A stretch of 64,000 nt of DNA from Patescibacteria group bacterium (GTDB lineage: Bacteria > Patescibacteriota > Microgenomatia > 0-14-0-10-38-17): contig JBMNNJ010000001.1 in NCBI GenBank assembly GCA_050953885.1, positions 271,437-335,436 of the forward strand, written 5' to 3'. The position numbers were made by a program, and so were the translations under genes. A model generated the notes under the pieces. The model was not told the DNA's origin and did no database searches. It saw only the letters and a program-made list of their open reading frames with translations. Below, one piece after another: positions 6,907 through 63,255 of the stretch. Numbering within the stretch: position 1 is the stretch's first letter; every line of letters starts with the position of its first letter.

Positions 6907-6954
6907 CTGCTAAAAGACGCGAATTAACGCAAATGAGAAACGAATGGACACGAA

Positions 6955-7135
6955 AAATAAACGCAAATATTAAATCGCAATCCGCCAGCTGGCGGATCAA
7001 AACGCAAATGGCAAAACTACATGGCAAATGTTAAAACTTTTTAAAACTTAAAGTTGTTTTTTTTAGTTTTGAGTTTTAACATGTAGTTTTGAGTTTTGCG
7101 ATTTGAGATTTGCGATTATTTTTATTATATCGTGT
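6955..7135 (+). repeat. MITE-like intergenic repeat, copy 2
   Basis: See copy 1. It sits in the rsmI/DedA divergent intergenic region, next to ATCCGCCAGCTGGCGGAT at 6980-6997. Confidence 0.8.
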
Positions 7136-12700: not shown

Positions 12701-12780
12701 TGAAGCGCTTGAGGCTTGAATCGTTTGAATCGTTTAACGTTTTTACGTTTCAAACGTCTCATGCATTTCACATTGGGATA

Positions 12781-12935
12781 CGCGAATGGACACGAAAAAT
12801 AAACTCAAAACTCAAATGGCAAATGGCAAATCTACATGGCAAATGTTAAAACTTTTTAAAACTTAAAGTTGTTTTTTTAGTTTTGAGTTTTAACATGTAG
12901 TTTTGCGTTTTGAGATTTGAGATTTGAGTTTATCT
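12781..12935 (+). repeat. MITE-like intergenic repeat, copy 3
   Basis: See copy 1. Confidence 0.8.
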
Positions 12936-13034
12936 TTTGTTTTTGAATTTTGCCTTTTGAATTATTTTTGCGCCAGTCATTTGCTCATTCGTGTCCATTC
13001 GCGTATCCGTAGCAATATCGCAATTTAACAATAA

Positions 13035-16325: not shown

Positions 16326-16662
16326 AAAACCTTTGACTAAGTTTTGAAAACAGCGGCTTGGCAAAAGACAGCACTTATTACTACGCTTTAAGGGCCATAC
16401 TTGGCCGGCAACTTTTCCGATTTGGTCACCGACGCGCCCGGAAAAGTGATTGCCGGTGAAGTTTACTATTATTACAACAGCGGTAACCGCCACCCCCGCT
16501 CCCGCCGGCGCGGAGGGAACTATTTTTTTTAGGTGAAGAGGAAAAGAGGAAGAAGCGGTCGGCACTACCAAAAAAGAAGCAGAGGAGAGCAAAGAAGGAA
16601 CCATTTCCGCCGAAGGAAAAGCTACCGCTCCCTCGTTTACTCTTGGATGAAAGGCTTGCCGG

Positions 16663-16941
16663 TCAGTCTGTTTTATACTCTTTTTTTACTCTTTCGGCGA
16701 GAAAAATTTTCATCAAAGACTGATAAGGAATATCTTTCTCGTGAGCAAGTTTTTTAAGAGCACTAAGCAAACTCTCCGGTAAACGGATTGTCACGGACTT
16801 GGTCGATGGCCTTAGCTCCGATAAGTCGAGATTGACAGGCTGGAAAATCTCTAAATAATCGGTAAAATCATGAGTTTCCCAAAACTTTCTCTCTTCCTCT
16901 TCGGTTCTAAATTCCGATAGGGTTTTTTTATTTTTTTTCAT
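16663..16941 (-). CDS. brnA: BrnA-like antitoxin (CopG/RHH family)
   Basis: It lies just downstream of, and overlaps, the brnT-like gene. The C-terminal segment SVTIRLPESLLSALKKLAHEKDIPYQSLMKIFLAERV matches BrnA. Confidence 0.6.
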   Translation of the reverse strand: MKKNKKTLSEFRTEEEERKFWETHDFTDYLEIFQPVNLDLSELRPSTKSVTIRLPESLLSALKKLAHEKDIPYQSLMKIFLAERVKKEYKTD

Positions 16942-17227
16942 AAAGATTTCTTTCTCTTTTACTCATATCACGAGCCGAAATGATTCTTACTTTTTCCCCT
17001 CTTAGGGTAAAAACAAGAAATAATTTTCTCCCCTCGTTAGTTTTTCCTAAGCCGACAAATCTTTTCTCTTTTTGGGAATGGTGAAAATCATAAAACAGCT
17101 TTAAATTCTTATCAAAAAATACTTCTTCGCTTTCTCTAAAACTAACGCGATGCTTTTCCCCATTTTTATATTTATTTACCTCATCCCAATCGAAACCTAA
17201 AATCTTTCTTCCCTTCTTGCCCCTCAT
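16928..17227 (-). CDS. brnT: BrnT-like toxin (DUF497 ribonuclease)
   Basis: FDWDEVNKYKNGEKHRVSFRESEEVFFD...RIISARDMSKRERNLY matches the DUF497/BrnT consensus. Confidence 0.7.
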   Translation of the reverse strand: MRGKKGRKILGFDWDEVNKYKNGEKHRVSFRESEEVFFDKNLKLFYDFHHSQKEKRFVGLGKTNEGRKLFLVFTLRGEKVRIISARDMSKRERNLYEKK

Positions 17228-17416
17228 TTTGTAAATGATTATACAATACTAAGAAAATTCTTATCAAGCCTGCTTTTGCCAAGATGTTTGTTCAAATATT
17301 CCCCTCTGTCTTCTTTTTAAAATTCTATAGCCTATATTCATTGAGGCTCTTTAACTAACGAAAATATTACGGATTATTCCATTTCTTTTCTCTTTAGGCT
17401 ATAATAAAAGATTGCC

Positions 17417-20323
17417 ATGGAAGAAATTATTATTCGCGGCGCGCGCCAGCATAATCTCAAAAATATTGATGTTGCCATTCCCAAAAACAAGCTGGTGGTT
17501 TTAACCGGCCTTTCCGGCTCCGGTAAATCATCACTTGCCTTTGACACCCTTTATGCCGAAGGCCAACGCCGCTATGTGGAATCGCTTTCCACCTACGCCC
17601 GCCAGTTTTTGGGAATCATGAACAAGCCGGATGTGGACGCCATTGAAGGCTTATCGCCGGCCATTGCCATTGACCAAAAAAGCGTCTCCCAAAATCCTCG
17701 TTCCACCGTGGGCACGGTAACCGAAATTTATGATTACCTGCGCCTGCTTTTCGCCCGCATCGGTCATCCCCACTGCCCAAAATGCGGCCGGGAAATAAGC
17801 CGCCAGTCGCCGGAGGAAATTTTAAATCTTGCCAAAGCTTTAATTCGGGAAAAAGTGGGCCAGAAAGGGGTGGCCCGGCTTTTCATCCTTTCGCCTTTAG
17901 TTTCCGGCAAAAAAGGCGAGCTTGCCGGTCTTTTTGAAAACCTTATTAAAAAAGGCTTCAGCTTTATTCGCCTTGACCGCCAATTTTTCCGCCTTGACGA
18001 GGATTTTACGATTTTAAAAAACAACCGCCACACCATTGAGGCGGTGGTGGATCGCCTTTCTTTTGAAAAAAAAGACCTGAAAAACGAAAAAAGCCCCCAG
18101 TGGCAGCGTTTGGCCGAAGCGATTAACAGCGCTCTCACTCTTTCCAATGGCGAGGTAATTTTAATGGAGGCCAATGACGCAAGCTTTGAAATGCCCGACC
18201 GGCCCAAAGAAACCATTGACCATCTTTTCTCCGAGCTTTTTGCCTGTCCGGTTTGCGGCCTTTCCCTGCCCGAGGTGGAACCGCGCACCTTTTCTTTCAA
18301 TTCTCCCTTTGGCGCCTGCCCCACCTGCAACGGTCTTGGTGCCCTTTTGCGATTTGATCCCAAATTGGTTTTGAATCTTAACTTATCCGTTTCCGAAGGG
18401 GGCATTATGCCCTTGGGGAAAATTTACTATCAGGACAACTGGTATGCGCGCATTTTTAAAAAATTTGCCGAAGAAGAAAAAATTGACCTGCGCCGGCCTT
18501 TAAAAGAACTGCCAAAAGAAGATCTTAAGAAAATTCTTGAAGGCACAGGTGAAAAAATTTACCGCGTTTCCGGCACTAATCGTTTTGGGGAAGAAACCAC
18601 CATCCGGGAAAAATTCCCGGGCATTCTCGCAGAACTTAAGCGCCGCTACGAAGAAACCGATTCCGACTTTATCCGTCAGGCCTTGGAAAAATTCATGAAC
18701 TACCAACTTTGCCCCACTTGTCACGGCACCCGGCTTAAAGCTGAAGCCTTAGCGGTAACCATTTTAGGGAAAAATATCTATCAGGCAAGCCAGCTTAATG
18801 TTGAGCAATTGCTTTCCTGGCTTGATAATTTTCCCGTTTCCTCCCGCGAGCAAATTATTGCCGCCCCCATTTTGAAAGAAATCAAAAGCCGCCTTACTTT
18901 TCTTAAAGCCGTCGGCCTTGATTATTTAACGCAAAACCGCCTCTCCGGAAGCCTTGCCGGCGGTGAAGCCCAACGAATTCGGCTTGCCTCCCAAATCGGC
19001 ACCGGTTTAACCGGCGTTTTGTATGTTTTAGACGAACCCACCATTGGCCTTCACCCCCGCGACGGCCAAAGGCTAATTGACACCCTCAAAAACCTGCGCG
19101 ATTTGGGCAACTCGGTGGTGGTGGTGGAGCATGACCGCCAAACCATCGAAAGCGCCGATTATGTTCTCGACTTTGGCCCGGGAGCAGGGAAAAATGGCGG
19201 CCGGGTGATTGCCCAAGGAACACCAATGGAGATTAAAAATAATCCCCAGTCGGTCACCGGCCCCTACCTTGCCAACAAAAAGAAAATTAAAATTCTTGAA
19301 AACGCAAGTGCCGGCCAGAATAGGGGAGCGATCAAACTTCAGAGCTGTTCGCAATATAATCTTAAAAATATTGACGTTTCCTTTCCTTTGGGAAAATTTA
19401 TCGGCGTTACCGGCGTTTCCGGCTCGGGAAAATCAACACTGGTAACGGAAACGCTTTATCCGGCTCTTGCCAAGTCCTTGGGATACGCCTTAAAAAGAGA
19501 GCCGGGACAATTTACCAACCTTGAGGGCGCGGATAAAATCCGCCGTGTTTATTTAATTGACCAGTCGCCCATTGGCCGCACTCCCCGCTCCAATCCGGCC
19601 ACCTATATCAGTGTTTTCACCGACATCCGCCAGCTCTTCGCCTCGCTGCCGGAGGCAAAAATCCGCGGCCTAAAACCCGGCCATTTTTCTTTTAATGTTC
19701 GCGGCGGCCGCTGTGAAGCCTGCCAAGGCTTTGGAGAAATAAAAATCGAGATGCAATTCTTATCGGATATTTTTGTTAAATGCGAAGTTTGCGGGGGTCA
19801 GCGTTACAACAGCGACACCCTGGAAATCCGCTATAAGGAAAAAAACATCGCCGAAGTTTTATCCCTGACGGTGGAAGAGGCGCTTTCTTTTTTCCAAAAT
19901 ATCCCCCCCATTGCCCATAAACTACAAACCTTGATGGATGTTGGCTTGGGTTATCTTCAGCTTGGTCAGCCGGCGCCCAATCTTTCCGGCGGCGAGGCGC
20001 AAAGAATTAAAATTGCCCATGAGCTGGTTAAAAAAGGGTCAGGCCAAACCTTTTACATTTTAGATGAGCCCACCACCGGCTTGCATTTTGCCGACTTGGA
20101 AAAATTAATTAAAGTTTTGCGCCAGCTGGTTAACGAAGGAAACACGGTGGTGGTTATTGAACACAATTTAGATCTAATTAAAAATTGCGACTGGGTTATT
20201 GACTTGGGACCCGAGGGGGGAGAGCGGGGCGGGGAAATTATTGCCCAGGGCTCACCGGCGGAAATTGCCCAAAACCCCCGCTCCTATACTGGAAAATATC
20301 TTAAAGAATTGCTAAACTTCTAA
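17417..20323 (+). CDS. uvrA: Excinuclease ABC subunit A
   Basis: Two ABC ATPase modules ([28 protein letters not shown]; [11 protein letters not shown]). Zinc-finger cysteines CPKCGR, CPVCG, CEAC are present. The length is 968 aa. Confidence 0.95.
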
Positions 20324-20569
20324 AGGACGCGAATTAACACGAATTAAAAACGAATGGGCACGAATGAGCGAATAATTGGTGCAAAAATAATTCAAAATTC
20401 AAAAGTCAAAATTCAAAATTTCAAGTTAAAAGTTTTTTGCTCTACTTTTGAATTTTAAATTTTGAATTTTGATTTAGGCTTTAATCTTTGATATTTGCGT
20501 TTTGAGATTTGAGTTTTTTTTACCTATTGCGCATTACGAAAATTTCTTAATCTCTTAGTATCTTAACTT

Positions 20570-24041: not shown

Positions 24042-25379
24042 ATGTTTAAAGCAAAAGTTCGTTTTTATTGGCGTCTTGTCCAAACTTTTTTGGGCCGTCA
24101 TTTCAAGGCCATCATCGGCGGTTTAATTCTGGCCGTTCTTTTAGTTTTCTCCTTCTTAAGGCTTTCTTCACAACCGCCGGTCTGGCGTTTTGCGGTGGTA
24201 GGCCAATATCAGCCCCAAAGCTTGCCCTCTTTTATCAGCGAATTAATAAGCTTTGGATTGGTTAAGGCCGACAATCAGGGTAATTTTTCCCCGGGGATCG
24301 CTTCTTCCTGGGAAGCTCAAGAAGAAGGGAAAAATTATCGTTTTTATCTTGCGGAAAATCTTTTTTGGCATGATGGCCAAAAAGTAAAGGCCAAAGATAT
24401 TAAATATCAATTTCAAGACTTAAAACTTAATGCCCTTGACGACAAAACCTTGGAGATTGTCTTGGAAGAAAAATACGCCTCGCTTTTGGATCTTCTTGCC
24501 CAACCGGTTTTTAAAACCAATTTAATTGGGGTAGGGGAGTACCGGGTTAAAAAATGGCAAAGCCAGGGAGAAGCGATCAGGCAATTAAATCTTGAGGCCA
24601 AAGACAAGAATAAGCCGCAAATTATTTTTAAGTTTTATCCCAACGAAGAAAGCGCTCGCCACGCTTTCAAAATGGGAGAGGTAGACATTATTTGGGGCCT
24701 GCAAAATCCCGATAATCTTGTTTACTTCCCCAACGTTACCATCGAAAGCCAGATTAATAACGAACAATATACCGCCGTCTTTTTAAACCTCCAAAAAGAG
24801 ACGTTGGCGGAAAAATCAGTTCGCCAAGCGCTTGCCTACGCCACCCCCAAGCCACAAGGGAAAAATCGGGCTAAAGGACCATATAACCCCAACTCCTGGG
24901 TTTATAACGACTTTGTTAAAACTTATGATTTTGACCTGGAGCATGCCAAAGAACTTTTAGGAGAAAGTAAAATTAGCCTGCAATTAGCCACTTTTCCCAA
25001 TTATCTGACGCTGGCAGAAAAAATTAAAGAAAACTGGGAGGCTCTTGGCGTGGCCACCGAAATCCGGGTAGTTAATTTTATTCCCGACGATTATGACGCC
25101 CTGCTTTTAACCCAGGCAATTCCCAAAAACCCCGATCAATATTGGTTTTGGCATTCCTCGCAAACTCAAACTAACATTACCCATCTTAACAATCCCCGCC
25201 TTGACCAGCTTTTGGAAGAAGGCCGCCTTACTACCGACAAGGAAAAACGGCGGCAAATTTACGCTGATTTCCAGCGCTTTCTTTTGGAAGAATCACCGGC
25301 AATTTTTATTGAATATCCCACCTATCATTATGTTTTCCGCCACGGCTTTGAAAATGCCACCCTGCCGGGGTATAATTAA
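24042..25379 (+). CDS. ABC transporter substrate-binding protein, family 5 (peptide/nickel type)
   Basis: N-terminal anchor. SBP_bac_5-like segments are present (FGLVKADNQGNFSPGIASSWE, LFWHDGQKVKAKDI). Confidence 0.6.
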   Translation: MFKAKVRFYWRLVQTFLGRHFKAIIGGLILAVLLVFSFLRLSSQPPVWRFAVVGQYQPQSLPSFISELISFGLVKADNQGNFSPGIASSWEAQEEGKNYRFYLAENLFWHDGQKVKAKDIKYQFQDLKLNALDDKTLEIVLEEKYASLLDLLAQPVFKTNLIGVGEYRVKKWQSQGEAIRQLNLEAKDKNKPQIIFKFYPNEESARHAFKMGEVDIIWGLQNPDNLVYFPNVTIESQINNEQYTAVFLNLQKETLAEKSVRQALAYATPKPQGKNRAKGPYNPNSWVYNDFVKTYDFDLEHAKELLGESKISLQLATFPNYLTLAEKIKENWEALGVATEIRVVNFIPDDYDALLLTQAIPKNPDQYWFWHSSQTQTNITHLNNPRLDQLLEEGRLTTDKEKRRQIYADFQRFLLEESPAIFIEYPTYHYVFRHGFENATLPGYN

Positions 25380-25591
25380 GATAAAACACGAATAGACGCG
25401 AATAAGAAACGAATAAACACGAATGAGCGAATGATTGGCAAGACAAGCTCGCGATAACGGTCACTATCATCCTGAACTTGATTCAGGATCAAAACAGATT
25501 CTGACTTTCGTCAGAATGACAGATTCCTTACCTATTACGTGTTACGCATTACGCATTAATATCTTAATATCTTAGTATCTTTTGAAAACAG

Positions 25592-26425: not shown

Positions 26426-26496
26426 TGCCCGGTCGTCTAACGGTAGGACAACAGACTTTGGATCTGTCTATCCAGGTTCGAATCCTGGCTGGGCAA
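26426..26496 (+). tRNA. tRNA-Gln(TTG)
   Basis: U1-A72 acceptor TGCCCGG/CTGGGCA. Anticodon loop CTTTGGA. T-arm CCAGG-TTCGAAT-CCTGG. Confidence 0.8.
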
Positions 26497-26520
26497 CTAG
26501 CACGGGCACCCAGGATAACC

Positions 26521-26651
26521 GAGAGAAATACATCTTCTAAGTGTCCCAGGTTCACGCCTGGCATATTTTTACTCTTTGGTAATAAAATACGACTAATATA
26601 CTCCAGGTGTCAAGTTAAGACACTTTCCAGGTGTACACACAGGTGTACAAC
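26521..26651 (+). repeat. About-130-bp direct repeat, copy A (CAGGTG-rich; left boundary of islet, immediately 3' of tRNA-Gln)
   Basis: Aligns over about 130 bp with 29629-29763 and 30864-30982, all in the same orientation. Shared blocks include CCAGGTGTCCCAGGTTCACACCTGG and CCAGGTGTCAAGTTAAGACAC. Confidence 0.85.
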
Positions 26652-26765
26652 ATTTTCATACAATTGCAAAAATTGAAGCGGGGGGCAACGCCTAGCCCTA
26701 CAATTGAAACGGTTAAAAAAATCGCTGACGCATTAGGTATTAGTATTGATAATTTATTCAAATAA
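26619..26765 (+). pseudogene. 5'-truncated XRE-family HTH regulator remnant
   Basis: The reading frame ...LQKLKRGATPSPTIETVKKIADALGISIDNLFK* matches the C-terminal half of an XRE HTH domain (E.G.R.PSLETL.KIA.ALGVS.D.LF). There is no start codon. The frame runs back into repeat A and hits a TAA. No reading frame of the repeat encodes an N-terminal HTH half. Confidence 0.45.
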
Positions 26766-26771
26766 CTAAAT

Positions 26772-29549
26772 ATGAATTTACTTCAGACACTTTGTTCATA
26801 TTGGTATGAATGTATAAAAAATGAAGATGTCTTAGAAAAAGATATTCCTATTAACGTGCGCTCAAAAGCAATTTTATACCCTTTTGATGATGACCCTTTT
26901 GTATTCAAAAAGAAAGATGTCTCCGTTAAGATTGAAAATGAAAAATTAAATACCTTCGCAACTACAAAAACCGAAGGATTAGAGTTTTATTATGGGTATC
27001 CACTTCTTTATTATCGAGACGATAAGACTGATAGACAATTAGTCGCTCCTTTATTTATTATCAAGGTTAAATTTAATCGCGACGGTAGAGATTTGTTTCT
27101 GTCTAAAGACGAGCAATATCCGGTTTGCGGAATTCAAGCTCTAAGCAAATTAGGATTAAGAACAGAAGAAACAGCCAATATAAACCAATCCATAGAAAAA
27201 TTATTTGTTGGTAACCCTAAAATAGATGAACAGCAACTTTGCAATGAGGCGCTAAAAATTATCGAGAAAGAGGCAGGAATTTCAATTATCGAGGAAATAA
27301 ATCCACTAAAACTATCCAACTCAAAAAAACTTACGAGAGAAATGTCGGCGGGCTTGTATAACAAAAGTTTAATTTTTGCCGGAGAAACTACAGTTTTTAA
27401 TATTCACCTGATAAAAGATTTGTTAGAGCTTAAAAGCAGAACTGATCTGGAGAAAACATCTCTATCGTTCTTTTCTGCTCCTCGTTCTGCCGATGTTCAA
27501 AATGAAGTAATACCGATACTTCCTTTTCCCTCAAACGAATATCAAATAACGGCAATTCAAGATATTTTTAGGCATTCGTTAAGCGTAATAACTGGCCCCC
27601 CAGGAACGGGAAAAAGTCAATTTATATCAAACCTGATTGTCAATCTTTTTCTAGCCGGCAAAACGGTTTTGTTTGTCAGCCATACGGGAGAAGCCGTTGA
27701 TGTTGTGAACTCAAGGATAAGTGAACAATTTCGAAATCTGATGTTACGAACTGGGAAAAAAGAACTTCGTCAAGATTTGAAAGGTAGGTTTAATGAGATA
27801 ATCGCAGATTCTTCAAAAAGAAATAATAAAAATATCTCTGCAGATTATATTTATTCTCTTTGGAAAACAATTCTGGAATACAGAGACAGCTTACTGAAAA
27901 AAGATGAAGCCGAAAAAGATTTTCAACAGAAGTTTTTTTACCAAAAGGAATTAAAAAATGTTCTTCAAATTCAAGATTCTATTGTAAAAAAACTAAAAAT
28001 ATACTTTCAGCTTTTTATCCTTAATTTTAAATTACAAAGAATAAAATCAAGATTGTTAAAATTACCCAGCCGTGTAAATTTTGAATCTAAAATAAGAGAA
28101 TTAGAAAAAGAATATTATCTTTCCTGTCAAGATTTTGTTCGAAATGTTTACTTAGAAAAAATGCTTGGTAATGGCAGCAAGATTAGTCTGGTTAATGCTT
28201 TTCTTAATCAGGTCAATAGTCATCGATTCAACGATGAAGATATAAGTGAGTCATCATTTATTAACGCTTTGCAGGTTCTTAAAATTTGGTCATCTACCCT
28301 AAAATCACTTAGGGGTACTTTTCCACTTAAAGCTAATATTTTCGACTACGTTATTTTTGACGAGGCTTCTCAAATTGATTTGCCGTCTACGGCCCCTGCC
28401 TTATATAGGGCCAAAAAAGCGATTATTGTGGGCGACCCAATGCAATTAACCCATATTGCGGGCATTACAAAGGATGTCGATTATGGATTAGCAAAAATAC
28501 ACGGCCTAACGGAAATGGGAGATATTTATCCTTCAAAAACAAGATATTGCGATGTTTCTTTATATAAAGCGGCTGAAAATTATTTGCCCCATTCATCAAT
28601 ATTTTTAACCAATCACTACCGCCCCGAAGACCAAATTATTTCCCTTTGTAACCAAGTGTTTTATGGAAATCGCTTAAAAATATTAAGCACGCTGGACTAT
28701 GGTAAGTTTCCTTCCGGATTACCCTTAGGCGTACAGTGGGAAGATATAAGAGGGGAAGTATATAAGCACCCTTCGGGAAGTCGCATCAATCAACGGGAAG
28801 TAGATGAGGTTAACAGAATTTTTCAAAAAGTGATAAAGGAAATTTCCGGGACTGATTTGACTGTTGGCGTGGTTACGCCTTACTCAAAGCAAAGGCAAGC
28901 AATATATGAAAAAATATCATCTATAACACCGGTAGAGGTTTTGGAAAAACACGATGTGAAAATACTGACAGCTCATCAATTTCAAGGTTCTGAAAAAGAT
29001 ATTGTCATTTTTTCGTTAGTGTTGACCTCTAAGGGAAATGGAAACAGCGACACATGGTATAACATTTACCGGCAAATATTAAATGTCGCCCTTTCTCGGG
29101 CAAGGTATCTTTTATACATCATTGGTGATAAGGATTTTTGTGAAAACAGGAAGGGTATTTTAGGCAAGATAAAAAGTGTTTATGAAAAAATCAAAGACGA
29201 AGAGAAATTAGAAGAGTATGACCTCCACGCAAAATTTGATACCCCAACCGAGAAGATATTTTTTGAACAATTACAGAAAGTCAAGTTAGATAAGTTTGGT
29301 TATAAATTGATACCAAAGTTAGTGGTAAAAAGATACACGCTAGATTTTGCAATCGTTGGTAAGAAAAAAATTAATGTTGAGATAGACGGCATACAACACG
29401 AAATAATCAAAGGTATGCCAGTTTTAGAAGATGTTGAACGAGATGAATTTCTGAAAAATGAAAATTGGGAAATTTTACGATTTCCTAATTACATGGTATT
29501 ATCTGAAATGCCAAAAGTCATTGATGAATTGTTGACTAAATTAAAATAG
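26772..29549 (+). CDS. SF1 (Upf1/DNA2-like) helicase fused to C-terminal DUF559 (Vsr-fold PD-(D/E)xK-like) endonuclease domain; N-terminal about 250 aa of unknown function
   Basis: Walker A ITGPPGTGKSQF. Motif II VIFDEASQ. VGDPMQL (AAA_12-type). NHYRP. QFQGSEKDIVIF. LNVALSRARYLLYIIG. The C-terminal 110 aa, YTLDFAIVGKKKINVEIDGIQHE...DVERDEFLKNENWEILRF, match the DUF559 consensus. Confidence 0.85.
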   Translation: MNLLQTLCSYWYECIKNEDVLEKDIPINVRSKAILYPFDDDPFVFKKKDVSVKIENEKLNTFATTKTEGLEFYYGYPLLYYRDDKTDRQLVAPLFIIKVKFNRDGRDLFLSKDEQYPVCGIQALSKLGLRTEETANINQSIEKLFVGNPKIDEQQLCNEALKIIEKEAGISIIEEINPLKLSNSKKLTREMSAGLYNKSLIFAGETTVFNIHLIKDLLELKSRTDLEKTSLSFFSAPRSADVQNEVIPILPFPSNEYQITAIQDIFRHSLSVITGPPGTGKSQFISNLIVNLFLAGKTVLFVSHTGEAVDVVNSRISEQFRNLMLRTGKKELRQDLKGRFNEIIADSSKRNNKNISADYIYSLWKTILEYRDSLLKKDEAEKDFQQKFFYQKELKNVLQIQDSIVKKLKIYFQLFILNFKLQRIKSRLLKLPSRVNFESKIRELEKEYYLSCQDFVRNVYLEKMLGNGSKISLVNAFLNQVNSHRFNDEDISESSFINALQVLKIWSSTLKSLRGTFPLKANIFDYVIFDEASQIDLPSTAPALYRAKKAIIVGDPMQLTHIAGITKDVDYGLAKIHGLTEMGDIYPSKTRYCDVSLYKAAENYLPHSSIFLTNHYRPEDQIISLCNQVFYGNRLKILSTLDYGKFPSGLPLGVQWEDIRGEVYKHPSGSRINQREVDEVNRIFQKVIKEISGTDLTVGVVTPYSKQRQAIYEKISSITPVEVLEKHDVKILTAHQFQGSEKDIVIFSLVLTSKGNGNSDTWYNIYRQILNVALSRARYLLYIIGDKDFCENRKGILGKIKSVYEKIKDEEKLEEYDLHAKFDTPTEKIFFEQLQKVKLDKFGYKLIPKLVVKRYTLDFAIVGKKKINVEIDGIQHEIIKGMPVLEDVERDEFLKNENWEILRFPNYMVLSEMPKVIDELLTKLK

Positions 29550-29628
29550 GTGGCGTAGCAATCAATCGGGATTTTGTTTAAAAAAGGTTCGCACTTCGTT
29601 CAGTAATTGTGGCTGATTCAGATTTTGT

Positions 29629-29763
29629 GAAGAAATACACCTTCTAGGTGTCCCGGGTTCACACCTGGCATATTTTTACTCTTTGGGCAATAAAACACGA
29701 CTAAAACATACTCCAGGTGTCAAGTTAAGACACTTGCCAGGTGTACAATACCAGGTGTACAAC
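29629..29763 (+). repeat. About-130-bp direct repeat, copy B (internal to islet)
   Basis: See copy A. A TGTATAAT -10-like element follows at about 29781-29788. Confidence 0.85.
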
Positions 29764-29860
29764 ACAATATAATTCAGGTGTATAATATTGTTGTACCCAA
29801 AACTTTGAGTAATTCGAATATATCGAATTATTAAACTGCATTATAAAAGGAGGTGAAAAA

Positions 29861-30196
29861 ATGTTTAAAAATCTTTTAGATTATTCATATAAAAGAAGTT
29901 TTAAAGAAGCAATTGGTTTTTATATTTCTTACCTCGTTTTGACTTTAATATTGGCAGTATTATTAACGAGTGTTTTAGGGCCAACTAGCGGTCAAGAAAA
30001 TTTTGATTTTGGTTATAGAGTTTGGAATCTTGTTGCTATTATAGTAACAGTTACCCTTTCTTTCCTTATTTTAAAAAAGAAAGAATTTTTAGGAAATTTT
30101 TTCTATTTTATATTGGCTCTTTTATCAGGAGTCTTATCATATTTTGGTGGCGGCTTGTTGGGCTTGATCCCCGTAGCTTTTCTTTCTACAAGATAA
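29861..30196 (+). CDS. Small integral membrane protein (3 predicted TM helices), hypothetical
   Basis: A canonical strong Shine-Dalgarno AAAGGAGGTG sits 7 nt before the ATG, which is rare in this window. The 111-aa protein is hydrophobic. Confidence 0.5.
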   Translation: MFKNLLDYSYKRSFKEAIGFYISYLVLTLILAVLLTSVLGPTSGQENFDFGYRVWNLVAIIVTVTLSFLILKKKEFLGNFFYFILALLSGVLSYFGGGLLGLIPVAFLSTR

Positions 30197-30233
30197 GCAA
30201 AACTTAAACAGCCTTGGGGAGAAAAATAAAAAA

Positions 30234-30671
30234 TTAATAAGATAAGGACTTGCCGTTGCGGGTGAGAAATTCAAAAAGCATTTTTGGGGTGAAAATTTTC
30301 TTAGGCTTGATAAAAGCGGCCACTTTTTGAGTCAAAAAATGTTTTTTGTCTAAAGTAATTAAAAACTCGCATGGAGCCATCTTTGCCTCAGTAAGAATGA
30401 CAGCATCCTTTTTAACAATTACTTTCCTAGCTTTCTGAATCAGTTTTTGATCTAGCTTTTGGTCGATAATTTCAAGTTTACTCACCAAAAGAAAAAATCT
30501 TTTTAAGTGATAGTTCTCTAATTTTTTACGGATATTCCTTTCGACTTCTGTTAAAACTAATTTTGAAGCAACCAACTTAATTTGTCTCAAGGTAAAAAGT
30601 TTTGATGAGCCACCCGTAGGAGAATTAACGGCCATAAACAAAACGCTTGAATCTAAAAATGCCCTTTTCAT
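30234..30671 (-). CDS. PIN-domain ribonuclease (VapC-like toxin)
   Basis: N-terminal AFLDSSVL (the first PIN acidic residue). Later ILTEAKMAPCEFLITLDKKHF carries the conserved D. The 145-aa protein lies 2 nt downstream of the antitoxin-like ORF. Confidence 0.7.
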   Translation of the reverse strand: MKRAFLDSSVLFMAVNSPTGGSSKLFTLRQIKLVASKLVLTEVERNIRKKLENYHLKRFFLLVSKLEIIDQKLDQKLIQKARKVIVKKDAVILTEAKMAPCEFLITLDKKHFLTQKVAAFIKPKKIFTPKMLFEFLTRNGKSLSY

Positions 30672-30673
30672 CC

Positions 30674-30874
30674 TTAAAGTTTATCTTCTTTTTCCCGCTC
30701 ATTAATTTCCTTCTCAGTAAATTCTCGAGTGAAAGGCAAAAGTTGAGGATCAATAAAAGCCTTTTGATAAATCCTGGCGACTTCCTTTTCGAGTTTAGCC
30801 AAATACTCAACATCCACCAAAACAGCTTCAGGTTTGCCGTTGCGAGTAAAGAAATTGACGGTTGAGAAATACAC
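30674..30874 (-). CDS. Phd/YefM-like antitoxin, apparently N-terminally truncated (GTG start at edge of repeat C)
   Basis: TRNGKPEAVLVDVEYLAKLEKE matches the RGKPVAVLVS.EEYE core of Phd/YefM. Only about 10 residues precede it instead of about 30. The upstream frame runs into repeat C and stops. Confidence 0.5.
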   Translation of the reverse strand: MYFSTVNFFTRNGKPEAVLVDVEYLAKLEKEVARIYQKAFIDPQLLPFTREFTEKEINEREKEDKL

Positions 30875-30982
30875 CTTCCAGGTGTCCCAGGTTCACACCT
30901 GGCATATTTTTCCTCTTTGGTGATAAAACACGACTAAAATATACTCCAGGTGTCAAGCTAAGATACTTTCCAGGTGTACAAA
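30864..30982 (+). repeat. About-130-bp direct repeat, copy C (right boundary of islet)
   Basis: See copy A. Confidence 0.85.
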
Positions 30983-31016: not shown

Positions 31017-31769
31017 CTAAATCTCTATCCCTATCGGACAATGATCCGAACCTTTAATTTGGTTTAAAATAAAGGCGTTTTTCAACTTGATCGCCAACTT
31101 TTGGGTAACAAAAACATAATCAATCCGCCAGCCCAAATTACGCGCCCGGGCGTTGGCATAATAGGGCCACCAAGTATAAGCATCCTTTTTTTTCGGATAA
31201 AATTTTCTAAAACTATCAATAAAACCGTTGCCGACTAGCTGGTTAATTCTGGCCCGCTCTTCGGGGGTAAACATAATGTTATTTTTATTTTCTTTTGGCC
31301 GGGCTAAATCAATTTCCTCATGGGCAATATTAAAATCACCCGTCAGGATAACTTTCTTTTCTTTAAGCTTTTGAAGATAATTTAAAAGATAGTCATAGAC
31401 CGCCAATTTATAGGCTAATTTTTCTTTTTGGCGGCCGCCATGAGGAAGATAAAGGTTAATCAGGCTAAACTGGGGATAGTCCAGTTTTAAAAATCTCCCC
31501 TCGTCGTCAAATTCTTTAAACCCTACCTTTTCCTCCCATGATAAAGGCTTTTGCCGGGAATAAACGGCCGTGCCGGCATATCCTTTTTTCTTCGCCGAGT
31601 TAAAATAAGAATAATAGCCTTTGAGGGAAACCAGCTCGGGGTCCAGTTGCTCTTTTGAGGCTTTTATTTCCTGAAGGCAGAGAATATCGACCCCCATTTG
31701 GTCAATTTTTAGGGCGCCTTTTTGGTAAACCGAGCGCAAGCCGTTAACATTCCAGGAAATGATTTTCAT
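31017..31769 (-). CDS. xth: Exodeoxyribonuclease III (AP endonuclease, EEP family)
   Basis: MKIISWNVNGLRS, the LQEIK motif, and the C-terminal SDHCPI motif. Confidence 0.9.
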   Translation of the reverse strand: MKIISWNVNGLRSVYQKGALKIDQMGVDILCLQEIKASKEQLDPELVSLKGYYSYFNSAKKKGYAGTAVYSRQKPLSWEEKVGFKEFDDEGRFLKLDYPQFSLINLYLPHGGRQKEKLAYKLAVYDYLLNYLQKLKEKKVILTGDFNIAHEEIDLARPKENKNNIMFTPEERARINQLVGNGFIDSFRKFYPKKKDAYTWWPYYANARARNLGWRIDYVFVTQKLAIKLKNAFILNQIKGSDHCPIGIEI

Positions 31770-35215: not shown

Positions 35216-35461
35216 CAAATTAGTCATTTGGCTAAATCGTATTTAGTATTAAGTATTAAGTCTGACTAGGATATAATTCGTCATGATGAATTCAATTCAG
35301 CATCTTTATGTAATGTTTTAGATTCTGACTTTCGTCAGAATGACGTTTCCGACAAATTAACGGTTTAACAATATAGTGTATTGTATTTTTACCCCTATCA
35401 TATATAATACAAGAGACAAAATACTAATTTTCATTTTTAACTTTTAAATTTTAACTGTTTT

Positions 35462-35516
35462 GCACCCGTAGCTCAGTTGGCAGATCCGCCAACTGGCGGA
35501 CTTTTAAGCAGTGAGC
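35462..35516 (+). pseudogene. Degenerate tRNA-Lys(TTT) fragment (5' half only; palindrome CCGCCAACTGGCGG replaces 5' anticodon stem; no T-arm)
   Basis: GCACCCGTAGCTCAGTTGGCAGA + TCCGCCAACTGGCGGA + CTTTTAAGCAGTG copies the 5' part of the tRNA-Lys 100 bp downstream. The T-arm and the 3' acceptor are missing. Confidence 0.6.
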
Positions 35517-35634: not shown

Positions 35635-35825
35635 CTAATCAACTGTATTTTGTATTCAGTATTAAGTATTCTGTATCAAAAAGATTCTGACTTTCGTCAG
35701 AATGACGTTTCCGACAAATTAACGGTTTAACAATATAGTGTATTGTATTTTTACCCCTATCATACGCAATACAAGATACCAGAGACAAAATACTAATTTT
35801 GATTTTTACTTTTAACTTTCTCTTC

Positions 35826-35901
35826 GCACCCATAGCTCAGTTGGCAGAGCATCCGCCTCTTAAGCGGCAGGTCGAGAGTTCGAATCTCTCTGGGTGCACC
35901 A
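35826..35901 (+). tRNA. tRNA-Lys(CTT)
   Basis: Acceptor GCACCCA/TGGGTGC. Anticodon loop CTCTTAA. CCA is encoded. Confidence 0.85.
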
Positions 35902-46581: not shown

Positions 46582-46650
46582 GAGACGAGAAAAATGCAAA
46601 TAACTTGTAATGCGTAATAAGCAAACGCAAAAAACAAAGCCTAAATAAAA

Positions 46651-46800
46651 ATTCAAAGACAATAAATAAACTCAAATCTCAAATGTCAAAACTCAAAACT
46701 ACAACTCAAAACTCAAATCTAAAAAACAACTTTAAGTTTTAAAAAGTTTTAACATTTGCCATGTAGTTTTGCCATTTGACATTTGCGTTTTGAGTTTATT
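46651..46800 (-). repeat. MITE-like intergenic repeat, copy 4 (reverse orientation)
   Basis: See copy 1. It begins with the same ATTCAAAGACAATAAATAAACTCAA terminus as copy 1. Confidence 0.8.
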
Positions 46801-46848
46801 TTTCGTGTCTATTCGTTTTTAATTCGTGTCAATTCGTGTTTTCAAAAT

Positions 46849-47739
46849 ATGAAAAAAACCATCGCTATTTTTAGTAGCAATCCCCATGCCTACGCGCCGC
46901 ACCGGTTTGCCGAAGAGGCAAGAAAAAAAGGTTTTTCTGCCGCTACTTTTGGCTACCAAGAGGTTGATCTTTATTTTACCTCAAAAGGAGAAAGAAAAAT
47001 CTTCTTGAAAGAAAAAAAAATAACAGAACCGTTTTTGGGGGCAATTTTTCGCTCCTCAAGAAACCCTCACCATATTTTTACCCCCCAGCGCGATTGTCTT
47101 CTAAATTTTTTTCTTCAACAAAAAACCATCGTCTTAAATCAAACTATTTATCAAAAGTGGCCCATCTTGGACAAAATTACCGAACATCTTGTTCTTTCTC
47201 AAAATAAGCTCCCCCTCGCCGCCTCTTGGATTTTTGGTTCTTCCCCAAAACTTAAAGAAAAAATAAAATTGCCGGCGGTTTTAAAATTTTATTTAGGCAG
47301 CCATGGCTCGCGAGTATTTAAGGTAAGAAATTCTCACGAGCTTAAAAAAATTTTAGCTTATTTCCCCGCTGAAAACCTCCTTGTTCAGGAAATCCTGCCC
47401 GAAGGCGAAGATTTACGGGTAATTGTTCTTGGCGGAAAAGCCTTAGGGGCAATGAAAAAAAAGGCCGCGCCGGGAAAATTTGTTACCAACTATTCTGCCG
47501 GCGGTAGCGTCAGTCCCTATAGTCTTAACAGCGATCAGTCAGCCAAGGTTTTAGCCGAAAAAACCGCCAAAATTTTTAAAGCTGATTTTTGCGGCGTTGA
47601 TTTAATGAAAGACACCCAGGGAGAATGGCGAGTTTTGGAGGTAAACACCGACTGCCAATTTGAAGGTTTTGAAAAAGCCACCGGCATCAACGTTGCCCAA
47701 AAAGTTATTGAGTTTTTGATTAAGCAAAAAACGTGGTAA
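46849..47739 (+). CDS. rimK: RimK-family alpha-L-glutamate ligase (ATP-grasp)
   Basis: RimK pre-ATP-grasp and ATP-grasp motifs (LRVIVLGGKALGAMKKKA; FCGVDLM; LEVN). The start is at ATG 46849. Confidence 0.8.
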   Translation: MKKTIAIFSSNPHAYAPHRFAEEARKKGFSAATFGYQEVDLYFTSKGERKIFLKEKKITEPFLGAIFRSSRNPHHIFTPQRDCLLNFFLQQKTIVLNQTIYQKWPILDKITEHLVLSQNKLPLAASWIFGSSPKLKEKIKLPAVLKFYLGSHGSRVFKVRNSHELKKILAYFPAENLLVQEILPEGEDLRVIVLGGKALGAMKKKAAPGKFVTNYSAGGSVSPYSLNSDQSAKVLAEKTAKIFKADFCGVDLMKDTQGEWRVLEVNTDCQFEGFEKATGINVAQKVIEFLIKQKTW

Positions 47740-49497: not shown

Positions 49498-50737
49498 TTT
49501 TTTAAAATTAGCCATTAAAAGCCTTTTAGTCAATAAACTGCGGACTTTTTTAACCATGCTGGGCATTATTATCGGCGTTGGCTCGGTGATTATGCTCATG
49601 TCGGTAGGAGCGGGGGTACAAACTTTTGTCAACCAGCAATTTGAACTGATTGGCGCAAATAATATCTTTATTATCCCCGGCCAGATGGGAGAAATGGCAA
49701 TGATGGGTGCAGGAGGAGGCAGTGGCAGCTCATCAACCGGCCAAACCACTTCCCAAGGAGGCTCGCTAGCCACCATGAGCACTTCAAAACTCAAGGAAAA
49801 ACATGTTAAAGGAATAAAGCGATTAAGCAGTGATATTTTAGAAGCAACAGGGACCATCGAAGTGCCCGCGAAAGCCACTTATAAAAACGAGGCTATTTTT
49901 GCTTCTCTTTCGGGGATTGATGAAAATTTTTTCGCCGCCAGTAATTTAGCCGTCCAGGTAGGTCGACCGATTGAGGAAAAAGATATCTTAAACAAAAGAA
50001 AAGTGGCCGTTATTGGCCCGGAGGTAGGCGAAGAACTTTTCCCCGGCATTGACCCTTTAGGAAAAAAAATCATCGTCGCTAATGTTTCTTTTGAGGTGGT
50101 GGGAATAACGGAAAAAAGAGGTACCGGCGGCATCGGCGGTAATATTGACCGGGTGATTTATGTTCCCTTTCCGATCGTCCAGAGCTTGACGGAAAAAGAA
50201 GGCCTACAGGCAATTTTAGTTAAGGTCTCCGATCGGGAAAAAATTCCCCAAATAATCGCTTTAATTAAAGATTATCTTTCTTCCGAACTTGACGAAAACG
50301 AATTTTCAGTTATAGATCAGACCAAAATTTTGGAAACGGTTAACGCGATTTTAACCATCTTAACTTACGCCTTAACCGCCATCGCTGCCATTTCCCTCTT
50401 AGTCGGCGGCGTGGGGATTATGAATATTATGTTTGTTTCCGTGGTTGAACGCACTAAAGAAATTGGCATCAGAAAAGCGGTGGGCGCCACATCGGGGAAC
50501 ATCCGCTCTCAATTTTTAACCGAGGCGGTGATTTTAAGTCTTTTTGGAGGTATTTTAGGAGTTGGTTTTGGGGTTTTGGGGGCCCAAATTGCCAACCGCT
50601 GGCTTACCACTACCGTCACCCCTTCTTCTATTATCCTTTCCCTAGGCGTGTGCTCTCTTATTGGAATTATTTTCGGTGTTGCCCCCGCCGCCCGGGCCGC
50701 CAAACTTGATCCGGTTGAGGCGCTGCGGTACGAGTAA
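49484..50737 (+). CDS. ABC transporter permease (MacB/FtsX-like, MacB_PCD plus FtsX domains)
   Basis: N-terminal TM, a large periplasmic domain, and a C-terminal FtsX-type 3-TM bundle. It overlaps the ATPase gene by 14 nt. Confidence 0.85.
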   Translation: MKLIDFLKLAIKSLLVNKLRTFLTMLGIIIGVGSVIMLMSVGAGVQTFVNQQFELIGANNIFIIPGQMGEMAMMGAGGGSGSSSTGQTTSQGGSLATMSTSKLKEKHVKGIKRLSSDILEATGTIEVPAKATYKNEAIFASLSGIDENFFAASNLAVQVGRPIEEKDILNKRKVAVIGPEVGEELFPGIDPLGKKIIVANVSFEVVGITEKRGTGGIGGNIDRVIYVPFPIVQSLTEKEGLQAILVKVSDREKIPQIIALIKDYLSSELDENEFSVIDQTKILETVNAILTILTYALTAIAAISLLVGGVGIMNIMFVSVVERTKEIGIRKAVGATSGNIRSQFLTEAVILSLFGGILGVGFGVLGAQIANRWLTTTVTPSSIILSLGVCSLIGIIFGVAPAARAAKLDPVEALRYE

Positions 50738-50912
50738 AAATACACGAATTAGCACGAATGGGAAACGAAAGAACACGAATGAGCGAATGAAATGTTGTAG
50801 GGGCGTATTGCATACGCCCGCAACAATTTAACAGTTTAACAATATAACAATATAACAATTTGTTTACCATTTTTCTCTTGTTAAGATTGTCTCTTCGTGT
50901 TATCATAATCTT

Positions 50913-63034: not shown

Positions 63035-63094
63035 TCCGTAACTCGTAACCGGTAAATAAACAAGCGCAAAAGCGCAATAATACGCGAATTGACA

Positions 63095-63255
63095 CGAAAA
63101 ATAAACTCAAATCTCAAAACGCAAATGTCAAATCTACATGGCAAATGTTAAAACTTTTTAAAGCTTAAAGTTGTTTTTAGTTTTTAGTTTTGAGTTGTAG
63201 TTTTGAGTTTTGCGATTTAACATTTGAGTTTATTTATTGTTTTTAAACTTTGATT
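63095..63255 (+). repeat. MITE-like intergenic repeat, copy 5
   Basis: See copy 1. It ends GAGTTTATTTATTGT, the reverse complement of the copy 1 and copy 4 start. Confidence 0.8.

Follow-up and report, generated by a model that had tools for sequence, protein, structure and literature searches.

Islet downstream of tRNA-Gln

In a Patescibacteria bacterium with a tiny genome, two segments of foreign DNA closely downstream of a tRNA-Gln gene are partitioned by three copies of a repeat of about 130 bp; how did this arrangement come about, and what is the repeat? The copies lie in the analyzed 64-kb stretch of DNA (the window), where a sequence-only reading had proposed a horizontally acquired, defense-type islet built from cassettes between same-orientation repeats. 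A repeat search and a MAFFT alignment return the three repeats at its coordinates to within 1 to 2 nt, all in one orientation and with a pairwise identity of 88 to 90%. The islet frame consists of the following features:

26426-26497, plus strand: tRNA-Gln(ttg), the last gene of an array of seven tRNAs (ARAGORN; Rfam, 62.6 bits)
26521-26652, plus strand: repeat R1, about 132 bp, quasi-palindromic, box-rich, att-like (repeat search, MAFFT alignment, profile)
29629-29764, plus strand: repeat R2, about 136 bp; behind it, a third right-end unit, degenerate, reaches to about 29803 (repeat search, MAFFT)
30863-30982, plus strand: repeat R3, about 120 bp, without the second right-end unit (repeat search, MAFFT)
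31017-31769, minus strand: xth, exodeoxyribonuclease III (Pfam Exo_endo_phos; named in NCBI), the right flank of the islet

R1 starts 24 nt past the 3' end of tRNA-Gln, with which the repeat is not contiguous, and R3 lies 35 nt from the stop codon of xth, the gene that had been expected there. In an alignment of two lineages (A and B), the homology of the tRNA trailer stops at about +25 to 30, so that the variable region begins 25 to 30 nt after the tRNA-Gln 3' end in both. The islet is indeed more AT-rich than its surroundings, with a GC content of 0.343 versus 0.429 in the remaining window, and is the most AT-rich 4.5-kb stretch of the window, about 3 SD below the mean GC.

The location at a tRNA 3' flank and the variability between strains are those of a tRNA-targeting island, but neither the islet nor the 64-kb window has an integrase gene next to an att site. 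As the sequence-only reading had stated, no integrase or transposase is found among the ORFs of at least 150 aa that were scanned in the window (all except a few overlapping ORFs) or in the precomputed gene table covering about 14 to 35 kb of it; a recombinase is likewise not found in the 64 kb, nor next to any of the related loci.

The repeat

The repeat is a quasi-palindrome with six to seven ACACCT/AGGTGT boxes, which sit symmetrically about the dyad at a 24-bp spacing, and its profile matches its own reverse complement with E values of 1e-7 to 1e-10. A 33-nt core pattern occurs three times in the window (0.00 expected) and the 8-mer CCAGGTGT 10 times, always within the repeats (0.56 expected), and the profile search of the window yields no copy beyond R1 to R3. 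In a 15-copy alignment the ends read GAAATACACC... on the left and ...CAGGTGTACAACAC on the right; the short inverted termini, ATACACCT / AGGTGTAC, are symmetric over only about 7 bp. The 130-bp unit contains no gene, a frame that stays open through it having no database homologue, and the repeat has no match in Rfam, phage or plasmid searches.

Over its left 40 nt the repeat is weakly similar (p of about 0.005) to tRNA-Gln, namely to the anticodon and T arms, and the T stem is identical; tRNA-Val reaches an equal score, and the tRNA covariance model has no match on the repeat at E values up to 10. All three window copies contain a hairpin and T-run resembling a terminator, after which weak -35/-10-like hexamers can be read directly.

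The copies are not uniform. Their central spacing differs by 1 to 3 nt, they share variants patchily, and the end units at their edges are partial and variable in number, with one edge being polymorphic through a recent deletion and end duplication. Gene fragments adjoin the edges on both sides, and no target-site duplication is present in the flanks of seven independent copies. The usual features of a MITE are lacking: the termini are symmetric over about 7 bp only and do not match IS ends, target-site duplications are absent, and the 64 kb contain only three copies, all in the islet.

Cargo of the two cassettes

Cassette 1, between R1 and R2, contains:

26653-26765, plus strand: 3' half of an XRE-type HTH gene (Pfam HTH_3, positions 26-53 of 55; blastn boundaries)
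26772-29549, plus strand: intact gene for a 925-aa helicase-nuclease (Pfam AAA_11, AAA_12, DUF559)
29568-29613, plus strand: conserved right-end motif of the XRE-helicase module, common to loci L037 (88% over 41 nt), L036 and L048

These domain matches bear out the truncated XRE remnant and the helicase-nuclease that had been read from the translations. DNA homology to the intact module of other phyla begins exactly at 26653 (blastn), the first ~237 bp of the module being absent and the XRE gene having lost its 5' half; at the other side, the right-end motif stops about 16 nt before R2. The 925-aa protein is composed of an unannotated N-terminal domain, an Upf1/Dna2-type SF1B helicase and a C-terminal DUF559 PD-(D/E)XK nuclease, with PDB sequence and fold matches to Upf1, Sen1, SETX and Dna2. 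Its Bacteroidota homologues are 87 to 89% identical, and the cassette DNA is 84 to 86% identical to the Bacteroidota copies.

Matches of this protein to ProA, Hhe, MkoA and MkoC are partial and below threshold: the NCBIfam model for ProA gives 146.6 bits where the cut-off is 1500, that for Hhe 76.8 bits where it is 2000, and the PADLOC matches to MkoA and MkoC span the helicase core only. None of the anti-phage helicase-nuclease systems Hhe, ProA, Mokosh and PLuB gives a full-length match above its cut-off. The label "defense-type" is plausible for the islet, but what remains behind it is this partial, sub-threshold similarity.

In four further genomes, too, the XRE-helicase module is located just downstream of a tRNA gene, across phyla and including Bacteroidota. 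A degenerate 33-nt copy of the tRNA 3' end comes after the module at L037, as is classically seen for attL/attR pairs, and the L041 module is enclosed by a perfect direct repeat of 120 bp, which begins at the tRNA end. The module might possibly itself be an autonomous element targeting the 3' flank of any tRNA gene.

Cassette 2, between R2 and R3, contains:

29861-30196, plus strand: gene for a predicted membrane protein of 111 aa, preceded by a strong Shine-Dalgarno sequence
30234-30671, minus strand: intact PIN-domain (VapC-type) toxin gene (Pfam PIN)
30674-30874, minus strand: Phd/YefM antitoxin remnant (Pfam Phd, positions 30-51 of 74; blastn, tblastn)
30831-30861, minus strand: 31-nt tail of a YtxH-family gene, 93.5% identical to L044 7600-7630

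The membrane protein matches no family and is without a counterpart at the Phd-PIN donor locus. Its Shine-Dalgarno sequence AAAGGAGGTG occurs once in the window (29846-29855), as had been claimed, but this uniqueness is not significant, since 16% of shuffles give at least one occurrence. Of the predicted PIN/Phd pair, the toxin is intact, and its protein is 97% identical to one (P0121) found in a conserved housekeeping neighborhood in other Patescibacteria; the antitoxin is a remnant. Another Patescibacteria genome has a chromosomal Phd-PIN locus to which a 0.6-kb part of the cassette is 94.7% identical, with DNA homology to the donor-type locus at 30238-30839. The 5' ~107 nt of Phd and the upstream region are missing through an internal deletion, and the YtxH-family gene, Phd's upstream neighbor in the donor-type locus, is left as a tail that directly abuts the left edge of R3.

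Judged by these alignments, both cassettes are imported fragments. The notion of intact cassette units does not hold, because the XRE 5' half and the Phd 5' end are gone and the YtxH-family tail is a scrap.

The same site with other cargo

A second lineage, B, carries the repeat in triplicate and direct orientation at the same tRNA-Gln flank, with 88 to 93% identity to the window copies. Its cargo is unrelated, consisting of radical SAM, GNAT, exonuclease and NUDIX-nucleotidyltransferase genes and IS debris. The lineage is clearly diverged: the surrounding spacers do not align, and the tRNA-Phe genes are only about 88% identical. The first repeat copy lies 2.7 kb from the tRNA, and xth does not adjoin the repeats there (context of L014 and L019). 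In the context survey, which covered the 64-kb window and contigs from three samples containing lineage B, every copy with an interpretable context belongs to the tRNA-Gln island, one contig (L013) being too short to place. The repeat is therefore not a common promoter or noncoding RNA upstream of core genes, and related genomes do not show the same genes at the tRNA-Gln/xth neighborhood without it.

In the population variant L005, R2 and R3 are fused into one hybrid repeat and cassette 2 is lost. The crossover maps to the longest identical run, in the left half of the repeat; R2 and R3 share no run longer than 22 nt, so that a k=31 assembly would not have joined them by error. R1 is 100% identical in L010, L017 has a decayed R1 copy with a 16-nt central deletion, and the interior of R3 is a contig break point in several samples. 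The islet arrangement is constant across three lineages diverged by about 5%, indicating slow turnover.

The identities to Bacteroidota and to the Phd-PIN donor locus, the cargo swap in lineage B and the loss in L005 together uphold the view of a horizontally acquired, variable islet. The same three-repeat layout with wholly different cargo in a related lineage points to a recombination hotspot that collects imported genes, its own recombinase being absent.

Origin of the array

The explanation we prefer, to which we would give a little under an even chance, is that integrase-less modules accreted in tandem at an att-like site served by a trans-acting recombinase, in a manner comparable to CIME and genomic-island accretion. 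The 130-bp repeat would be the recombination site of an integration hotspot starting about 25 nt past the tRNA-Gln gene. There, circular or incoming DNA with a related site would have integrated more than once. The recombinase would have acted in trans, encoded either at another place in the genome or by a mobile element present only transiently, and each event would have added one site copy, giving site-cargo-site-cargo-site. The cargo may later have decayed by deletion, and the sites could recombine mutually, site-specifically or by homologous recombination, leading to cassette deletion or exchange. We infer a site-specific recombinase acting on the site, a serial-integration origin of the array and binding of the recombinase to the ACACCT/AGGTGT boxes, which are putative protein-binding sites.

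This reading is supported by the lineage B array at the same flank, the confinement of all placeable copies to the tRNA-Gln island, the 3'-of-tRNA habit of the cassette 1 module with the flanking repeats at L037 and L041, the tRNA-Gln-like left 40 nt, the dyad symmetry with its symmetric boxes, and the R2-R3 hybrid of L005. Against it count the lack of a recombinase in the 64 kb and at related loci and the lack of an attP carrier: the site is absent from phage, plasmid and viral contigs, and scans of viral, phage, plasmid, GTDB and metagenome sequences yield no autonomous relative. Moreover, gene fragments at both edges and variable end units are not predicted by clean site-specific integration and resemble transposon-end activity or illegitimate joining, tRNA-targeting integrases do not typically have a 130-bp identity segment that leaves out the tRNA 3' end, and ordinary homologous recombination explains the L005 loss equally well, its crossover lying in the longest identical run.

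These ragged edges are what a non-autonomous transposable element would explain, either MITE-like or a miniature IS26 analogue, mobilized by a transposase encoded elsewhere; we regard this as unlikely, but as deserving consideration. Cointegrate or "translocatable unit" events beside an existing copy would build arrays, and end-adjacent deletions would truncate genes, as seen at both edges of several copies. The small, non-coding, quasi-palindromic repeat with its short inverted termini, the variable end units and edge polymorphism, the IS debris in lineage B and the direct copies without target duplications, as in IS26 arrays (PMC4196232), all fit. However, the copies are not dispersed, those with known context lying at one locus; target-site duplications are absent, also a point against such an element; the window is without a transposase, the terminal inverted repeat is very short, and the termini are unlike those of the co-resident IS1595 or rve-type elements, in line with the earlier statement that the repeat is not an IS end.

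Somewhat less probable still is that the 130 bp are a host terminator/promoter spacer between the tRNA array and xth, passively duplicated at each foreign insertion, whose copies now merely supply homology for RecA-dependent deletion and exchange. L041 shows that module insertion can duplicate about 120 bp of host sequence beside a tRNA, and the terminator-like hairpin, the L005 crossover and the patchy sharing of variants, which fits gene conversion, are consistent with it. A neutral spacer, however, would not be expected to carry dense symmetric boxes or to be so conserved between lineages with unalignable spacers and with tRNA-Phe genes only about 88% identical, and in lineage B the repeats are neither beside xth nor close to the tRNA. 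The varying central spacing argues against a conserved promoter.

There is also a slim chance that the partly tRNA-like palindromic site is the landing pad of an undescribed Patescibacteria gene-capture system, in which an enzyme acting in trans would attach DNA fragments of any kind to the edges of the site and duplicate the site each time. This would explain the ragged edge fragments, the partially duplicated end units and why lineages keep the site despite complete cargo turnover. If true, the system would be integron- or CRISPR-array-like, but with kilobase fragments and no need for a cassette-borne site.

That the repeats are cis-regulatory junctions, each an upstream terminator with an outward promoter/operator kept to drive or insulate captured genes, is very improbable, and it would be an add-on rather than a full alternative, as array formation is left unexplained. 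The boxes would then be operators for a repressor such as an XRE protein. The terminator-like hairpin followed by hexamers speaks for it, as does a same-orientation gene beginning soon after the right edge in 5 of 7 copies, including that of the helicase, whose own promoter was lost along with the XRE 5' end. But this orientation bias is not significant, the plus-strand hexamers are not called by the promoter scan and have spacers of 15 to 18 nt, and R3, which points at the 3' end of xth, has no gene to drive.

Hardly credible is an integrase-less integron-like cassette array (CALIN) with the repeats as attC sites: the size, imperfect palindromy and mutual similarity of the sites recall Vibrio chromosomal arrays, and direct orientation, toxin-antitoxin cargo and the lack of a nearby integrase agree, but, as the sequence-only reading had held, the R''/R' core motifs (RYYYAAC / GTTRRRY) are absent from the repeat ends in the 15-copy alignment (the sole GTT-containing motif, GTTAAGA, fails the attC consensus and is not conserved, most copies having GCTAAGA), single-strand folding looks weak (z of -1.3 to -3.5, alternative local hairpins, a low ensemble frequency and no clear long bulged hairpin, with overall dyad symmetry present), the cassettes hold two to three genes or fragments on both strands with truncated ends instead of single promoterless ORFs, and the single mapped crossover (L005) lies in the left half, not in the right-end core.

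Comparison with known systems

The organization had not been matched to integron attC sites or to IS, ICE or prophage ends, yet analogues exist in the tandem accretion of integrase-less elements at att sites and in IS26-type arrays. With CALINs and chromosomal integrons the islet shares imperfectly palindromic direct sites of similar length that separate cargo including a toxin-antitoxin pair, while it lacks the core motifs, IntI and single promoterless ORF cassettes, and its single-strand folding seems weak.

IS26 pseudo-compound arrays and translocatable units (PMC4196232, PMC7986276) likewise have direct copies between unrelated cargo, no target duplications, edge-truncated genes and repeat-by-repeat deletion. 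The islet unit differs in being 130 bp long without a transposase, in its ends, which are unlike nearby IS elements, and in not being dispersed. An IS26-type array proper has the transposase within the repeat, and this unit has no gene.

The Dehalococcoides ssrA islands are tandem genomic islands at tRNA/tmRNA genes with direct repeats of the gene's 3' end (PMC3146451). Like them, the islet directly follows the 3' end of a tRNA-type gene, is divided by several direct repeats into successive islands and differs in content between strains; part of the repeat also resembles the anticodon and T arms of the tRNA. Unlike theirs, its repeat does not look like a copy of the tRNA 3' end, stands 24 nt apart and is only weakly similar to tRNA-Gln, and no islet unit has an integrase gene.

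In streptococci, CIMEs occur alongside ICEs and IMEs by tandem accretion of integrase-less elements at an att site (PMC5704250). The islet differs from these in its quasi-palindromic, box-rich 130-bp site, in the fragmentary cargo that is ragged at the site edges, in a Patescibacteria host with a very small gene complement and in having no known helper element or integrase. What it shares with them is the direct att-element-att-element-att array, decayed cargo and elements without recombination genes, which here would depend on a recombinase in trans, and the tandem structure with att-like bounds and no recombination or transfer genes is seen in two lineages.

Repeat copies and their setting

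Three same-orientation repeats of about 130 bp, which a sequence-only reading had reported in the roughly 4.5-kb islet between tRNA-Gln and xth, are present where it located them.

Repeats, tRNA and genes of the islet (repeats from repeat search and alignment)
3' end at 26497: tRNA-Gln(ttg), with R1 starting 24 nt further on
26521-26652, + strand: repeat R1
29629-29764, + strand: repeat R2
30863-30982, + strand: repeat R3
islet: XRE fragment, only the C-terminal half of HTH_3
islet: 925-aa protein with AAA_11/AAA_12/DUF559
islet and right flank: 111-aa membrane protein, PIN toxin, partial Phd antitoxin, then xth

The copies are 88-90% identical in pairwise comparison. Their 33-nt core occurs three times in the window, against 0.00 expected, and the 8-mer CCAGGTGT ten times in 64 kb, all within the repeats, against 0.56 expected. 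Run on the window, a profile HMM of eight copies finds none beyond R1-R3. The islet is the lowest-GC 4.5-kb stretch of the window (0.343 versus 0.429 in the remainder), in line with the earlier claim that it is more AT-rich than its flanks, and the gene content claimed for it matches the Pfam scan of the ORFs. No recombinase or transposase is found among the scanned ORFs of at least 150 aa across the window, so that the reported lack of an integrase or transposase in the islet holds at this scope. The Shine-Dalgarno sequence AAAGGAGGTG, singled out as unique in the window, is real but statistically unremarkable.

The window also carries several dispersed families of intergenic short-period or palindromic repeats of 100-200 bp with TTTTGA-type and ACGAAT-type units (2857-2985, 6905-7142, 12778-13001, 46630-46857, and 63076-63265; further 20315-20523, 25374-25444, and 50730-50779), none of which resembles the 130-bp repeat in sequence. 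Both tRNA-Lys genes have a copy of a direct repeat of about 170 bp (89% identical, 35320-35484 and 35682-35848) upstream of them.

Anatomy of the repeat

The repeat unit was defined by aligning 15 copies plus their flanks. One to three partial tandem units of GAAATACACCYTC form the left edge, followed by CAGGTGTCCCAGGTTCACACCTGG, a hairpin, and CATATTTTT; the centre is AT-rich, with a length differing by 1-3 nt between copies, and to its right come CCAGGTGTCAAGCTAAGACACTTTC and, at the right edge, one to three units of CAGGTGTACAACA. The alignment shows no target-site duplications and no relation between the flanks on either side.

Positions 9-117 of the repeat profile match the profile's reverse complement (E 1e-7 to 1e-10), with the 6-bp boxes ACACCT and AGGTGT placed symmetrically around a dyad at position 58.5 or so and spaced 24 bp apart on each side of it. 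Single-strand folding of the repeat is weak (z -1.3 to -3.5), and Rfam, searched with the window at the gathering threshold and with the islet at E up to 10, returns tRNAs and noise only, so no known ncRNA corresponds to the repeat. With this weak folding and no Rfam family, the repeat reads as a candidate double-stranded protein-binding site and not as an RNA or a folded attC. A promoter function was also considered and rejected, as the scanner calls no consistent plus-strand promoter and the hexamer spacing differs between copies. A translated frame open through the repeat gave no candidates in a protein-space search.

The left 40 nt of the repeat can be aligned to the adjacent tRNA-Gln across its anticodon and T arms, the T stem CCAGG/CCTGG being common to both (p about 0.005 against dinucleotide shuffles). 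This likeness is suggestive without being conclusive.

The XRE-helicase module of cassette 1

The interval between R1 and R2 (cassette 1) holds a two-gene module found in other phyla. Its helicase has homologues of 87-89% identity in Bacteroidota (Thermoflavifilum thermophilum and a Bacteroidota MAG); those from several other phyla share about 60%. The window DNA is 84-86% identical to the Bacteroidota loci over 26653-29555, where 26653 is the exact right edge of R1. The shared module, about 3.1 kb long, extends some 237 bp further to the left, where it starts with an intact XRE gene of 64-84 aa, so the window copy has lost its left end; the XRE gene is shortened at its 5' end both in the window and in genome L046, giving the module a ragged left end. 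On the right, a conserved motif of about 45 nt (29568-29613) stops about 16 nt short of R2.

Positions of the XRE-helicase module
window, 26653-29613: 3' of tRNA-Gln
L036, 7645-10940: directly 3' of tRNA-Pro, same orientation
L037, 7649-11105: directly 3' of tRNA-Pro, same orientation
L041, 3422-6914: directly 3' of tRNA-Glu, same orientation
L046, 4810-7990: directly 3' of tRNA-Ala, same orientation

The module thus lies directly 3' of a tRNA gene and in its orientation in five of six genomes from different phyla, with L047 as the only exception, and no integrase is found at the L036, L037, L041, L046, or window module loci. Beyond the far side of the module, L037 carries a degenerate 33-nt copy of the 3' end of tRNA-Pro. 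In L041, the module is flanked by a perfect 120-bp direct repeat (3302-3421 and 6915-7034), which starts about 5 nt past tRNA-Glu and takes in the Ham1-family gene downstream from its promoter to codon 28. Because this repeat spans the start of that gene, the insertion either duplicated host sequence or used the 120-bp homology.

The helicase is an Upf1/Sen1/Dna2-type SF1B enzyme with a PD-(D/E)XK nuclease; its matches to the anti-phage proteins ProA, Hhe, MkoA, and MkoC are partial and far under the cut-offs. A mobility domain was sought and rejected, the structure model (mean pLDDT 67) and PDB searches giving Upf1/Sen1/Dna2-type helicases only. Residues 1-255 (window 26772-27536) are highly conserved among 37 homologues (e.g., Y10, W11, C14, E18, and D24); this N-terminal domain has no Pfam or NCBIfam match, and the moderate-confidence model gives no fold for the N-terminal 250 aa. 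Viral contigs hold no close relatives of the module (best 31% identical), and plasmids gave no match.

Cassette 2 as a mosaic and its deletion variant

The interval between R2 and R3 (cassette 2) is a mosaic. Region 30238-30839 is 94.7% identical to a Phd-PIN locus that other Patescibacteria carry among housekeeping genes in a conserved neighbourhood (FtsK, RodZ-like, YtxH, Phd, PIN, and alaS), and 30831-30861, abutting R3, is the final 31 nt of the adjacent YtxH gene. About 190 nt are deleted, including the 5' end of Phd, and the membrane-protein gene has no counterpart at the Phd-PIN locus of other Patescibacteria. Two diverged Patescibacteria genomes carry intact Phd-PIN (L042 6939-8774 and L044 6986-8811) in the order Lon-like AAA, UDG, RNase J, FtsK, RodZ-like, YtxH, Phd, and PIN. 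This conserved order indicates that Phd-PIN belongs stably to the chromosome in those genomes and was captured as a fragment in the window. The proposal of horizontally acquired cassettes stands in part: the DNA matches of 84-86% and 94.7% mark the cargo as imported, but it is fragmentary and not made of intact cassettes. A further toxin-antitoxin pair, CopG/BrnT, lies between uvrB and uvrA at about 16660-17230 (precomputed Pfam table, L024).

In metagenome contig L005 (SRR13001966), cassette 2 is cleanly lost and xth is joined directly to the helicase via a hybrid repeat, R2-like on its left side and R3-like on its right. The crossover lies inside GGTTCA[CAC]CTGGCATATTTTT, with a 3-bp deletion in the hybrid exactly there. 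This interval coincides with the longest run of identity between R2 and R3 (22 nt), so homologous and site-specific recombination account for the variant equally well. An artefact of k=31 assembly is unlikely, as no identical run common to R2 and R3 exceeds 22 nt and the 3-bp deletion is unique to the hybrid.

The repeat in other lineages

Exact-pattern scans did not find the repeat in IMG/VR (four patterns) and gave a single chance match in the GTDB species representatives; BLASTN against INPHARED phages and PLSDB plasmids gave no match. A two-block pattern was used for metagenomes and found the repeat in two further lineages; 6 of the 14 matches were rejected as chance, sharing the two anchor blocks only. 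Exact-protein look-ups place the same species in several metagenomes, in most cases with an unchanged arrangement, and relatives in the clusters of the window proteins bear the name Candidatus Woesebacteria.

Contigs L010 and L017 differ from the window by about 5% and share its tRNA-Gln/R1/XRE remnant junction. L010 is identical to the window throughout the tRNA-to-XRE block, which makes the comparison uninformative on purifying selection on R1. Lineage B (L009, L011, L014, and L019-L021) is far more distant, with about 88% identity to the window in tRNA-Phe and spacers that fail to align. It too carries three direct repeats downstream of tRNA-Gln, with quite different cargo (radical-SAM protein, GNAT, membrane protein, IS1595 transposase, DEDDh exonuclease, pseudogenes, NUDIX-nucleotidyltransferase, and an rve-type transposase cut off at a repeat edge). 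The lineage B copies are 95-96% identical among themselves and 88-93% identical to those of the window. In both lineages the variable region starts about 25-30 nt past tRNA-Gln, and all copies with interpretable context lie in the tRNA-Gln island, L013 being too short to place. One repeat edge of L020 differs from that of L009/L011: 51 nt of the neighbouring gene have been lost there and 30 nt of additional left-end units gained, which marks the edges as sites of recent rearrangement.

Elements like the TTTTGA/ACGAAT-type repeats occur in lineage B to the right of the last repeat (L014 3114-3354). In one sample, L008 (1-888, compared with the window from 32611) has other genes in place of the S41-peptidase/DnaJ gene directly 3' of tRNA-Gly(tcc), a second strain-variable tRNA 3' junction.

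Possible origins of the array

For the two-lineage pattern, the simplest explanation is an integration hotspot, where an att-like site would gain one copy with each integration and so build a tandem array, the recombinase being provided in trans or since lost. We hold this reading tentatively, at somewhat less than an even chance; it rests on one site at one tRNA flank, in equal number and orientation in both lineages, with entirely different imported cargo and no recombinase nearby. Integrase-type insertion at tRNA flanks is supported by the helicase module elsewhere, where direct repeats derived from a tRNA or next to one surround it. The hotspot account leaves the ragged gene fragments on either side of the repeats and the partial end-unit duplications poorly explained, and two other explanations are retained for this reason. 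Such fragments and duplications recall the activity of transposon ends in IS26 arrays (PMC4196232), yet a MITE or IS26-like element is unlikely, since there are no target duplications, the copies are not dispersed, and no IS ends match; an IS-derived MITE was rejected specifically, the repeat having no similarity to the IS1595 or rve-type IS ends of the related island. Passive duplication of native spacer DNA seems rather improbable. With no recombinase among the scanned ORFs and with rearranged edges, we leave a slim chance for a new capture mechanism. An integron attC is rejected on the missing core motifs and wrong cassette structure, and the folding is weak; the sequence-only reading likewise could not match the organisation to attC.

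Significance and comparison with known systems

Patescibacteria have minimal genomes, and to our knowledge little is known about their gene acquisition. The locus is a concrete acquisition platform, with a conserved 130-bp site by tRNA-Gln and imported DNA that differs between lineages. The helicase-nuclease gene, at 86% DNA identity with Bacteroidota, is direct evidence of a recent cross-phylum transfer into a CPR genome. The occurrence of its module at five tRNA genes in several phyla, with no integrase, points to an uncharacterised tRNA-flank targeting. If a trans-acting recombinase uses the site, the repeat would provide a defined DNA substrate for finding the enzyme and possibly a gene-insertion tool for organisms not yet manipulable.

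Among the closest known situations are CIMEs, integrase-less elements that accrete with ICEs or IMEs (PMC5704250), and tandem islands at tRNA/tmRNA genes (PMC3146451). Unlike known accretion arrays, the array described here has an unusually long, symmetric, and box-rich site without a tRNA 3' end, no identifiable recombinase in the window and related loci, a CPR host, and cargo that attests to recent cross-phylum transfer.
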